Part shown: positions 12-1,255 of the stretch, one piece after another
How the letters are laid out: each line of letters opens with the position of its first letter
Position numbering within the stretch: the first letter of the stretch is position 1
From: Naegleria gruberi
Taxonomy: Eukaryota
DNA length: 1,255 nt
Assembly: GCA_000004985.1 (NCBI GenBank)
Contig: GG739471.1
Strand: one strand, 5' to 3'
Notes under the pieces: generated by a model
Seen by the model: the letters and a program-made list of their open reading frames with translations, nothing else
Databases searched by the model: none
Told to the model about the DNA's origin: nothing
Position numbers and translations under genes: made by a program

Positions 12-155
12 TTAAATATTAAAAGCTAAATATGATAATAAACTAGTAGAAGCAGTAATACCTAATGCAAGTAAACCTTTTTTAATCAGTGATGCACCAT
101 CTGATGATGATGAAGTAGATGAAGATGTTATATCATTATGATGATGTTGACTCAT
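12..155 (-). CDS. Small hypothetical protein, 47 aa (MSQHHHNDITSSSTSSSSDGASLIKKGLLALGITASTSLLSYLAFNI*). The N-terminus is His/Ser-rich and the C-terminus is a ~21-residue hydrophobic segment, so it may be a tail-anchored membrane micro-protein.
   Basis: Complete ORF on the minus strand. ATG is the reverse complement of 153-155, and a TAA stop is the reverse complement of 12-14. A run of 7 A immediately 5' of the ATG (plus-strand TTTTTTT at 156-162) matches the A-rich start context typical of dictyostelid genes. GC is ~28% over the ORF against ~9% just upstream. Codons end mostly in T/A. Translated by hand. No homology search was possible. Confidence 0.45.
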   Translation of the reverse strand: MSQHHHNDITSSSTSSSSDGASLIKKGLLALGITASTSLLSYLAFNI

Positions 156-162
156 TTTTTTA

Positions 163-199
163 AATCAATCAATATTAATATTAATAATATTATTTAATT
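163..199. repeat. AT-only low-complexity tract (AATC AATC AATATTAATATTAATAATATTA...) upstream of the minus gene.
   Basis: Simple-sequence repeats of AATC and ATTAAT units, typical of dictyostelid intergenic DNA. Confidence 0.6.
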
Positions 200-209
200 A
201 TAACACAAT

Positions 210-231
210 TAATAATATTACTGTGATGAAA
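210..231 (+). repeat. Left copy of an imperfect direct repeat: TAATAATATTACTGTGAT-GAAA.
   Basis: It matches 495-517 (TAATAATATTACTATGATTGAAA) with one substitution (G/A) and one 1-nt indel. The first 13 nt, TAATAATATTACT, are identical (210-222 = 495-507). Confidence 0.8.
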
Positions 232-354
232 CTGCAAACATCGGAATGAAAAGAACTTGAAGTGTTTGTTGAATAATATAAATACATTGAAGAATTTTGT
301 ACAAAAATGGTGAGTTTTATATTTGGACAAATTTCAACCTGAACCCAATCTCTT

Positions 355-373
355 TCTTGGTTGGTGGTTGTGT
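355..373. promoter_or_regulatory. GT-rich / CA-rich tract (plus: CTTGGTTGGTGGTTGTGTA; minus: ACACAACCACCAACCAAG). Candidate G-box / CA-rich-element type site.
   Basis: It is the densest G/C patch in the intergenic region. Dictyostelium G-box-binding factor (GBF) is known to recognise G-rich/CA-rich promoter elements. There is no exact consensus match here (no GGG run), so this call rests on composition only. Confidence 0.2.
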
Positions 374-377
374 ACAA

Positions 378-416
378 TCATTTCAACCATTTCAAAATCA
401 TTTCCAATTCATTCAA
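378..416 (+). repeat. Periodic short-motif array. CATTTCAA-like units (TCATTTCAA, CCATTTCAA, TCATTTCCAA, TTCATTCAA) recur about every 9-11 bp. On the opposite strand this reads TTGAAATGR x4.
   Basis: Read directly from atcatttcaaccatttcaaaatcatttccaattcattcaatttg. On the minus strand, TTGA/TTGG cores recur with spacings of 9, 9, 12 and 9 nt, which is close to one helical turn. Confidence 0.6.
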
Positions 417-442
417 TTTGATCAATGTTCCATATCTGATAG

Positions 443-454
443 TCATTTAAATGA
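443..454. repeat. Perfect 12-bp palindrome TCATTTAAATGA. It is an inverted dimer of the TCATTT half-site that recurs in the adjacent motif array.
   Basis: The reverse complement of TCATTTAAATGA is identical to it. TCATTT also occurs at 378-383 and 397-402. Confidence 0.85.
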
Positions 455-494
455 ATTAATAATAAGAATAACATAATTAATAATAGAATTTGTC

Positions 495-517
495 TAATAA
501 TATTACTATGATTGAAA
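495..517 (+). repeat. Right copy of the imperfect direct repeat: TAATAATATTACTATGATTGAAA.
   Basis: See the left copy. The two copies are ~285 bp apart and bracket the GC-richer island. Confidence 0.8.
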
Positions 518-546
518 TAAACAATCAATAAAAAAACGTTACACAT

Positions 547-570
547 TACTACTAATACTACTACTAATAC
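547..570 (+). repeat. Perfect tandem duplication of the 12-mer TACTACTAATAC (x2).
   Basis: 547-558 equals 559-570 exactly. Confidence 0.9.
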
Positions 571-640
571 TTGTAAAGATAATAATACACAAACTACTAT
601 ACATTATCATCACAATCATAATATATCATTCCGATATAAT

Positions 641-654
641 ACTACTACTACTAC
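641..654 (+). repeat. (ACT)4 trinucleotide microsatellite followed by AC, i.e. (ACT)4.7.
   Basis: actactactactac read directly. It lies in a G-depleted tract upstream of the plus gene. Confidence 0.85.
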
Positions 655-656
655 AT

Positions 657-683
657 TATAATATTAAAATTGCACTTTTCATC
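657..683 (+). promoter_or_regulatory. Candidate core promoter for the plus gene: a TATA-like element TATAATATTAAAA followed by the T-run TTTT at 676-679, roughly 45-70 bp upstream of the ATG.
   Basis: Dictyostelid core promoters typically have a TATA box followed by an oligo(dT) stretch just upstream of the transcription start. The pattern here is consistent with that, but unverified. In ~90% AT DNA a TATA-like string is not specific. Confidence 0.3.
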
Positions 684-695
684 ACTATCATCATC

Positions 696-726
696 ATAAA
701 TAAATAATAATAAATAATAAATAATA
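696..726 (+). repeat. (AAATAAT)n-like A-rich leader immediately 5' of the plus-gene ATG.
   Basis: ataaataaataataataaataataaataataat followed by ATG. This is the A-rich start context typical of dictyostelid mRNAs. Confidence 0.7.
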
Positions 727-1255
727 ATGGGAAATGAACAAAGTAATGAACAATTTAAACAAAAATTACAAAATATAAATACAACATTAGAAAATAAAAT
801 TAATTCATTTTCATTTAGAAATAATGTTGATGATCATGAATTAAATCAACAACAAGTTGATGATGATTTTATTTTAATTGATAATAATATTAATATTAAT
901 AATAATAATAATACTAAATTATCTTGTGATGATAATAATTCATCATTAGATTTAAATATAAAAATAAATAAAAATATTAAAAAAAATAATTCATTTAAAA
1001 TTAGTGATGAAATTATTAATAATAAAAAAAGTAAAGATTATTATGATCATTTATTTAGTGAAAATAGACATTCTAACTTTTGTCAATTAGATTCTGATAT
1101 TATTTTTAAAATATTTACTTTTATAATATTTCCAATTAAGGAATTTAATGAATTATATTTATTTGAAGAAGAAGAAGAAGAATTAGAAACTGAAGAAATT
1201 TTAACAGATGATGAAGATAATGATCAATCTAATAATAATTTAAATAATTCAAATT
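727..1255 (+). CDS. Hypothetical low-complexity protein, 3' end truncated by the window, at least 176 aa. It is N/Q/D/E-rich with an N-terminal MGNEQS (N-myristoylation-type motif), an F-box-like helix LDSDIIFKIFTFI (aa ~121-133) and an acidic tract EEEEEELETEEILTDDEDNDQ.
   Basis: ATG at 727-729 is the first ATG in this frame; an in-frame TAA lies at 718-720. An A/T-rich (AAATAAT)n leader sits immediately upstream. The frame is open through 1254 with no stop. Composition shifts from ~10% GC upstream to coding-like. Codon usage is typical of dictyostelids (AAT, CAA, GAT, GAA, TTA, GGT, CCA). No GTAAGT-type intron donor is seen inside. Hand translation: MGNEQSNEQFKQKLQNINTTLENKINSFSFRNNVDDHELNQQQVDDDFILIDNNININNNNNTKLSCDDNNSSLDLNIKINKNIKKNNSFKISDEIINNKKSKDYYDHLFSENRHSNFCQLDSDIIFKIFTFIIFPIKEFNELYLFEEEEEELETEEILTDDEDNDQSNNNLNNSN... 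Confidence 0.65.
   Translation, partial: MGNEQSNEQFKQKLQNINTTLENKINSFSFRNNVDDHELNQQQVDDDFILIDNNININNNNNTKLSCDDNNSSLDLNIKINKNIKKNNSFKISDEIINNKKSKDYYDHLFSENRHSNFCQLDSDIIFKIFTFIIFPIKEFNELYLFEEEEEELETEEILTDDEDNDQSNNNLNNSN
898..912 (+). repeat. (AAT)5 coding microsatellite giving a poly-Asn run.
   Basis: aat x5 in frame within the plus CDS. Confidence 0.9.
1165..1182 (+). repeat. (GAA)6 coding microsatellite giving hexa-Glu.
   Basis: gaagaagaagaagaagaa in frame. It continues into a broader acidic tract that runs to ~1227. Confidence 0.9.

Follow-up and report, generated by a model that had tools for sequence, protein, structure and literature searches.

A GC-enriched island between two divergent genes of Naegleria gruberi is not coding-like and may be upstream control DNA of both

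We analysed a stretch of 1,255 nucleotides (nt) of contig GG739471.1 of Naegleria gruberi (assembly GCA_000004985.1), here called the window, which carries two divergent open reading frames (ORFs) and between them an intergenic region of 571 nt (156-726). Within this region lies a block richer in guanine and cytosine (GC) than the DNA around it, the GC island, which is our subject (Table 1). A first-pass annotation made from the letters of the same DNA had described it as a coding-like island with open frames on both strands. We find that the compositional feature is real and that the gloss "coding-like" is unsupported. The two flanking ORFs provide an internal standard for this comparison, since their composition is that of real genes of such an AT-rich genome: GC at the first, second and third codon positions (GC1/2/3) is.32/.49/.04 in the minus-strand ORF of 47 amino acids (aa) and.30/.15/.02 in the plus-strand gene. 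The GC baselines and motif consensuses that we use below were taken from dictyostelids, mainly Dictyostelium discoideum, and may not be those of the host.

Table 1. Features of the window, with positions counted from its first letter and a dot where no strand applies.
Feature	Position	Strand	Description
Flanking minus-strand ORF	12-155	-	47 aa (MSQHHHNDITSSS...); ATG 155-153 after A7; GC3 4%
Left spacer, from the minus-gene ATG to the island	156-220	.	Almost pure A/T, low complexity; G 0 and C 4 of 65
Stop-free minus frame	201-377	-	59 codons, in exact codon register with the plus frame; holds a 29-aa ATG ORF from 287; judged non-coding
GC-enriched, sequence-complex island	221-444	.	Maximal GC segment, 30.8% GC
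Left lobe	221-325	.	Purine-/G-rich on the plus strand, G 21, C 8
Canonical TATA box TATAAATA	277-284	+	Sole TATAAA(A/T)(A/T) in the intergenic region; possible core-promoter element facing right
Stop-free plus frame	291-476	+	61 sense codons (291-473), then TAA 474-476; without in-frame ATG; judged a by-product of composition
AAAAATG followed by GTGAGT	303-315	+	Start codon in good A-rich context and a 5' splice site-like sequence
Near-canonical TATA box TATAAAAC	314-321	-	Faces left
Right lobe	326-445	.	C-/pyrimidine-rich on the plus strand, C 26, G 14, with 9 G in one G/T cluster
DUSE-like octamer ACCCAATC	343-350	+	6/8 positions of [AT]CCCA[AT]AA; only CCCA-containing octamer; dictyostelid consensus, which may not be the host's
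G/T-rich cluster CTTGGTTGGTGGTTGTGTAC	356-375	+	Densest G run of the island; G-box-like, without an exact GBF site
Two short palindromes, TTGATCAA (418-425) and TATCTGATA (433-441)	418-441	.	GATC and an inverted GATA pair; putative sites
Right spacer beside the island	446-529	.	AT-rich; G+C 11 of 84
Flanking plus-strand gene	727-1255	+	MGNEQSNEQ...; ATG 727; open to the window end; strong period-3; GC3 2%

The contrast first reported, an island of ~30% GC between flanks of ~9-14%, holds for the island itself (28.0% for 223-476, up to 30.8% for the maximal segment) and for its immediate flanks only: GC is 7.5% on the left (156-222) and 15.1% next to the island on the right (477-529), but 22.8% farther right (530-700) and 21.5% over the whole intergenic region. 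Even so, the enrichment stands out when the bases of this intergenic region are permuted at random (scan statistic, P=0.004). In D. discoideum, random intergenic DNA has 13% GC and the median ORF 25% (PMC5295588); the island lies far over the former value (binomial, 3e-12) and equals or exceeds the latter, with the proviso that these baselines may not be the host's. Its sequence is also the most complex of the window, with 41-48 distinct 4-mers per 60 nt. Relative to the start codons, the island is upstream by 66-289 nt in the case of the minus gene and by 283-506 nt in that of the plus gene. The G/C skew flips at ~325 between two lobes (Fisher test, P=0.003, for a boundary picked after looking), which are separated by an AT-richer saddle at ~271-325, and in each lobe C prevails on the strand directed towards the nearer gene. 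The island shows no nucleosome-positioning signal in the form of a ~10-bp periodicity of WW or S. The first-pass annotation had concluded that the island is probably functional. This is reasonable in so far as a GC-rich block in a genome with AT-biased mutation is unlikely to be neutral old DNA, and the island is statistically real (P=0.004), but the argument that it drew from the open frames fails, as we now explain.

The island is not coding-like. The frames that had suggested otherwise do exist: the plus frame is open over 61 sense codons up to its TAA, the minus frame read from 377 to 201 is open over 59 codons in register with it, and the plus frame has no in-frame ATG, all as first described. 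Yet codon-position GC is flat in the island (GC1/2/3: plus frame.33/.28/.23, minus frame.27/.34/.27), with 23-27% at third positions against 2-4% in the flanking genes. The third base is G or C in 14 of the 61 codons of the plus frame and in 5 of 223 codons of the two real genes (Fisher test, 6e-7). Period-3 power gives no signal in the island (P=0.34), whereas it is strong in true coding sequence (CDS; P<0.0005). In frame, the codon log-odds score is weakly positive (+0.14). It had been noted that the plus frame uses preferred codons, which is selective: CTG, TTG (twice), TCC and GAG are used as well and the third positions hold the 14 G or C just mentioned.

The fact that both strands are open in the same register argues against coding, because the codons TTA, TCA and CTA are read as stops on the opposite strand. 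In the real genes of the window 14% of the codons are of these three kinds, and TTA alone encodes 19 leucines out of 21. Of the 29 codons that are open on both strands (291-377), none is TTA, TCA or CTA (P=0.011), and the leucines there are written TTG, TTG and CTG.

Nor are open frames of this length hard to come by. Stop-free runs of 60 codons had been held not to be expected by chance, a claim that does not stand up to the six runs of 59-64 codons found outside the true coding frame in the 1255-nt window, among them 516-704 (+) and 412-603 (-) elsewhere in the intergenic region and 849-1037 (-), the last being antisense to the plus gene. When the island is shuffled with its dinucleotides preserved, 17% of the shuffles contain a run of 61 codons or more (P=0.17). 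Shuffles that carry a run of at least 59 codons on both strands are rarer (P=0.012), and the whole intergenic region holds 4 runs of at least 55 codons where shuffles predict 0.47; part of this region consists of (ACT)n-type repeats. Since the whole intergenic region shares the excess of long runs, we ascribe it to a local non-coding texture, strand-skewed and locally repetitive, and not to the island in particular. Less A and T means fewer TAA, TAG and TGA triplets, and long open frames would follow passively.

Start codons, splice sites and homologues do not bring the coding interpretation back. The ATG at 307-309 had been singled out as the only one nearby and as followed directly by GTGAGT. 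The second part is right, and this GTGAGT (310-315) is the sole GTRAGT in the window, but other ATGs occur at 226, 246, 425 and 451. When all donor and acceptor combinations were tried from this ATG and the donor at 310, the resulting ORFs reached at most 43 aa, with introns of 23-32% GC. We also rejected an upstream extension of the minus gene by an intron, for which the models have to rely on weak donors and an ATG in poor context; the only one with a plausible AT-rich intron, of 71 nt (ATG241, donor GTAATA at 221, acceptor 152), starts in such a poor context and splices out the perfect AAAAAAATG start. With HMMER, an exhaustive search through 1.84 billion representative proteins returned 0 matches to the plus frame, a word-indexed protein search found no homologue of the minus frame, and no Pfam family passed the threshold with either, the minus frame giving a sub-threshold match only. 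These homologue negatives are limited by the flanking genes also being without homologues, from which it seems that lineage-specific proteins are not represented in the databases searched. Thus, the proposal of a coding-like element, or of an unannotated small exon or gene, is contradicted by the missing period-3 signal, the flat codon-position GC, the wrong synonymous choice and the failure to find a start or splice model or a homologue.

As far as this can be tested, the island is not a structured or known RNA either. Under permissive thresholds no Rfam 15 family gave a match reaching E=1 inside the island; the sole overlap is spurious, a Listeria small RNA that scores 16 bits where the gathering score is 100. 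ARAGORN predicted 0 transfer RNA (tRNA) genes. The segment 215-480 folds worse than its shuffles (z of +0.89 on the plus and +1.01 on the minus strand), and sliding windows have a mean z of +0.22 with a best value of -2.7 among 124 windows, which is chance level. The non-coding RNA (ncRNA) of the first-pass annotation, understood as a structured molecule, is therefore not borne out. Small nucleolar RNAs (snoRNAs) of the box C/D type have a RUGAUGA C box and a CUGA D box joined by a terminal stem and are typically ~70-120 nt long. The island does contain a C-box-like GTGATGA at 223-229 and CTGA at 339-342 and 436-439. We rejected this candidate because GTGATGA and the CTGA at 339-342 are 117 nt apart, their flanks TTACT and ACCCA cannot pair, and no CD-box family of Rfam matches in the island.

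The DUSE motif of dictyostelid small ncRNAs reads [AT]CCCA[AT]AA (PMC3188802) and precedes the RNA start by about 60 nt, and the closest sequence in the island is the octamer ACCCAATC. A scan with the variant [AT]CCCA[CT]AA gave no exact match. CTTACAG, the core of the conserved 11-nt Class I motif that adjoins a 5'/3' terminal stem, does not occur in the window, GTTGA is found only at 268-272, upstream of the DUSE-like site and not at the expected distance, and a T-run terminator is lacking. A DUSE-driven Class I or Class II RNA was rejected on the grounds that there is only a 6/8 DUSE, no CTTACAG, no terminal stem and no Rfam match.

How, then, should the island be read? We favour non-coding upstream control or promoter DNA common to both divergent genes, an explanation reached by elimination and from position, to which we assign a probability of about 0.5. 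The dense cis-regulatory module that the first-pass annotation listed among its options is in this sense the most plausible survivor, with the reservation that none of the known dictyostelid motifs tested is present or enriched. A complex island set between low-complexity A/T spacers, within a few hundred nt of both ATGs, is consistent with such a role, as are the presence inside it of the sole canonical TATA box of the intergenic region and the flip of the G/C skew between the lobes. Comparable positions are known for dictyostelid elements, namely the paired GBF sites in the shared intergenic regions of divergent sigN pairs (PMC2257962).

The mechanism would be as follows. Under AT-biased mutation, G and C would be kept only where proteins read positions specifically, and a cluster of such positions would appear as a GC island. 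The island would then carry binding sites for sequence-specific transcription factors. The saddle between the lobes may hold core-promoter elements, with TATAAATA (277-284) pointing rightward and TATAAAAC (321-314) leftward. The open frames on both strands would be a passive by-product that holds no coding information. We infer both the activity of the island, be it factor binding or transcription initiation, and which of the two genes it would target.

Several observations weigh against upstream control DNA. About three matches to TATAAAWW are expected by chance in AT-rich DNA this long (an estimate from base frequencies), so that the TATA box alone is no evidence. [quoted passage not shown] The poly-T that precedes start sites there is missing here: we found only T4 at 294-297, and no run of five or more T on the plus strand between 162 and 726. 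For GBF, whose G-box consensus is (T/G)G(T/G)G(T/G)G(T/G) (PMC2257962), there is no 7-mer match on either strand, the consensus being a dictyostelid one that may not be the host's; partial 5-mer matches occur at 363, 369 and 347(-). No k-mer of 6 to 8 nt recurs in the island above shuffle level. TTGA repeats are known as STAT-type regulatory elements, made of closely spaced TTGA boxes. Here TTGA/TCAA occurs 9 times against 8.05 expected (P=0.41). There is no dyad symmetry between the lobes, whose inverted-repeat alignment scores 18 where shuffles average 19.6. Finally, a block of 225 bp is long for a set of binding sites, and the explanation leans largely on elimination and position.

Some further candidates and sites bear on the regulatory content of the island. 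A repeated array of cis-motifs, with CATTTCAA-like units at 331, 380, 389 and 400, was rejected as not commoner than in shuffles, the series at 380-410 carrying no statistical weight. A large imperfect inverted repeat across the lobes was rejected on the same alignment score of 18 against 19.6. The palindromes of the right lobe are listed with the fact in mind that the GATA factor GtaC binds GATA-like and GATC motifs (PMC4506546). The 12-mer AATATAAATACA at 275-286, which contains the island TATA box, recurs at 772-783 in the CDS of the plus gene, probably by chance in AT-rich DNA.

Among the alternatives, the strongest takes the island for the body of an ncRNA that is unannotated and transcribed independently, either promoter-associated or an intergenic long non-coding RNA (lncRNA). 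We consider this unlikely, while granting that a candidate plus-strand unit can be drawn: it would run from TATAAATA at 277-284, with a start at ~300-310, over ~220 nt to AATAAA at 516-521 and 527-532 and an A7 at 530-536. The TATA box, the AATAAA and the A-run come in the order given for transcription units by PMC3371697, and the right lobe is G-poor on the plus strand. Moreover, the 621 intergenic lncRNAs of D. discoideum have a median GC of 17%, against 13% in untranscribed DNA, and a median length of 628 nt (PMC5295588). By this D. discoideum yardstick, the 28-31% GC of the island fits "transcribed" better than "silent spacer". Yet TATAAAWW and AATAAA should each turn up several times by chance in DNA this AT-rich (AATAAA is present 10 times on the plus strand of the window), no poly-T precedes the putative start, there is no structural signal, and a unit of ~220 nt is shorter than the 628-nt median.

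Somewhat less probable, in our view, is a decaying relic, i.e. a former exon, a pseudogene or a transposable or otherwise inserted element that has not yet eroded to the AT-rich baseline and has no present function. A GC of 28-31% is at coding level (the median ORF has 25%, PMC5295588) and comes without codon periodicity, as one would expect of a piece that once was coding and has had its frame scrambled. That both strands have an open frame of at least 59 codons is mildly unusual for the composition (P=0.012). The island is also bracketed by similar AT-rich stretches in direct orientation (195-234 and 463-519), which share an identical 13-mer, TAATAATATTACT, at 210-222 and 495-507. Against this, the shared 13-mer has P=0.054 and the alignment of the two stretches scores 50 where an unrelated AT-rich stretch of the window scores 44, i.e. 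the flanking repeat is within the low-complexity range. The core TAATAATATTA of the 13-mer occurs four times in the window. As a mark of an insertion with target-site duplication, the flank repeat is thus indistinguishable from low-complexity recurrence. Neither frame has protein similarity, blastn against plasmid and phage records found no DNA similarity, and there is no ribosomal RNA (rRNA) or tRNA similarity. An insertion of mitochondrial or ribosomal DNA was likewise rejected, there being no rRNA and no protein similarity. Reading the island ends by eye, with no formal test, we saw neither a terminal inverted repeat nor a poly-A tail.

We give still less credit to a short RNA gene, or a small-protein gene with a micro-exon, unannotated and nested in the bidirectional promoter. 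It would use the TATA box at 277-284 to start near AAAAATG GTGAGT and would end at the AATAAA/A7 of 516-536. If it were real, it would be a young or lineage-specific transcription unit overlooked by existing gene models.

An unannotated coding exon or small gene, lying in one of the two open frames or starting from AAAAATG(307) GTGAGT with a very short first exon, is highly improbable, this rival being largely refuted by the intrinsic tests. One might invoke the two open frames of ~60 codons, the good A-rich context of ATG 307 with its consensus-like 5' splice site, the codon log-odds of +0.14 in frame, and the precedent of the sigN small-protein genes, which carry only 13 nt of ORF in exon 1 (PMC2257962). 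But there is no period-3 (P=0.34), GC3 is 23-27% instead of 2-4%, the 29 doubly open codons include no TTA, TCA or CTA, the frame has no in-frame ATG, splice models from ATG307 stop at 43 aa, no protein or Pfam match was obtained, and the peptide, rich in phenylalanine and glutamine, reflects a CATTTCAA-type motif that is loosely repeated in the DNA. Hardly credible at all is a small structured RNA gene (a box C/D snoRNA, a DUSE-driven Class I-type RNA or a microRNA hairpin), for which a C-box-like GTGATGA at 223-229, CTGA at 339-342/436-439 and the 6/8 DUSE match of ACCCAATC at 343-350 are outweighed by the lack of an Rfam match, folding z of +0.9/+1.0 with a best window of -2.7 among 124, no terminal stem at the C/D boxes on reading their flanks, no CTTACAG and no T-run terminator.

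The neighbours of the island have features of their own. The 47-aa product of the minus-strand ORF, MSQHHHNDITSSSTSSSSDGASLIKKGLLALGITASTSLLSYLAFNI, combines a head rich in His, Ser and Thr with a hydrophobic tail, a layout that would suit a small tail-anchored membrane protein; a homology search and an exact-record look-up in protein collections gave no match to it. The 29-aa ORF held by the open minus frame, MYLYYSTNTSSSFHSDVCSFITVILLIVL (287-201), has a similar polar head and hydrophobic tail, and the likeness may be a coincidence of low-complexity composition. MGxxxS is a pattern for N-myristoylation, and the start of the plus-gene product, MGNEQS, presumably fits it. Pfam gave no match to the visible 176 aa of this product, and the protein collection gave no homologue. 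Look-ups of the exact products of four window ORFs gave no match, and exact DNA strings of 24-35 nt from the island and CDS are absent from metagenome and prokaryotic genome contigs.

The DNA between the island and the plus gene is also peculiar. The 216 nt before the plus-gene ATG (511-726) are free of ATG, and from 530 to 726 the plus strand is strongly G-poor (C 34, G 5). Direct repeats of (ACT)n-like type lie at 547-601 and 637-670, upstream of the plus gene. The stop-free run at 516-704, of 63 codons, scores as non-coding. The whole segment (511-726) might serve as a long leader or as part of a promoter rich in CA/ACT. Inside it, TATAAT at 657-662, with TTTT after it at 677-680, has the look of the proximal core promoter.

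These results have little significance beyond this locus, apart from two practical points. Wherever GC rises locally, open frames become longer on both strands, and ORF length alone is thus a poor sign of coding in AT-rich genomes. Conversely, third-position GC, period-3 and the use of TTA/TCA cleanly separate real genes from GC islands, even within a window of 1.2 kb.

How does the locus compare with known systems? Its resemblance to DUSE-dependent ncRNA genes (Class I/II and small nuclear RNAs; PMC7919456, PMC3188802) is a CCCA-containing octamer in an intergenic GC-richer patch; it differs from them in its 6/8 DUSE and in lacking the 11-nt Class I motif, a terminal stem and any Rfam match. 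With the TATA/poly-T promoters of Dictyostelium (PMC3371697) it shares a canonical TATA box at 277-284 (+) and a near-canonical one at 321-314 (-). Unlike in those promoters, neither box has a poly-T of at least 12 nt beside it, and the two boxes are "crossed", such that the predicted start sites would overlap. As in the intergenic lncRNAs of D. discoideum (PMC5295588), the sequence is intergenic, with GC above 13%, little coding potential and no conserved structure. The candidate unit of ~220 nt is shorter than their median of 628 nt, and its GC of 28-31% lies well over their median of 17%.

The divergent sigN pairs (PMC2257962) offer another parallel. There too the genes stand head to head, one of them encodes a very small protein, the common intergenic region is short, and a G/C-richer block lies within A/T-rich DNA a few hundred bp from both ATGs. 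The differences are that the island has no GBF site on either strand and lacks the palindromic arrangement of sigN group 2. AT-rich dictyostelid promoters are already known to contain regulatory patches richer in GC, among them common control regions of genes that stand head to head (PMC2257962). Although it agrees with no specific motif definition that was tested, the locus would add one member to known kinds. If the island is control DNA, it would be another case of a known pattern, in which the informative parts of promoters in extremely AT-rich genomes are the GC-richer patches.

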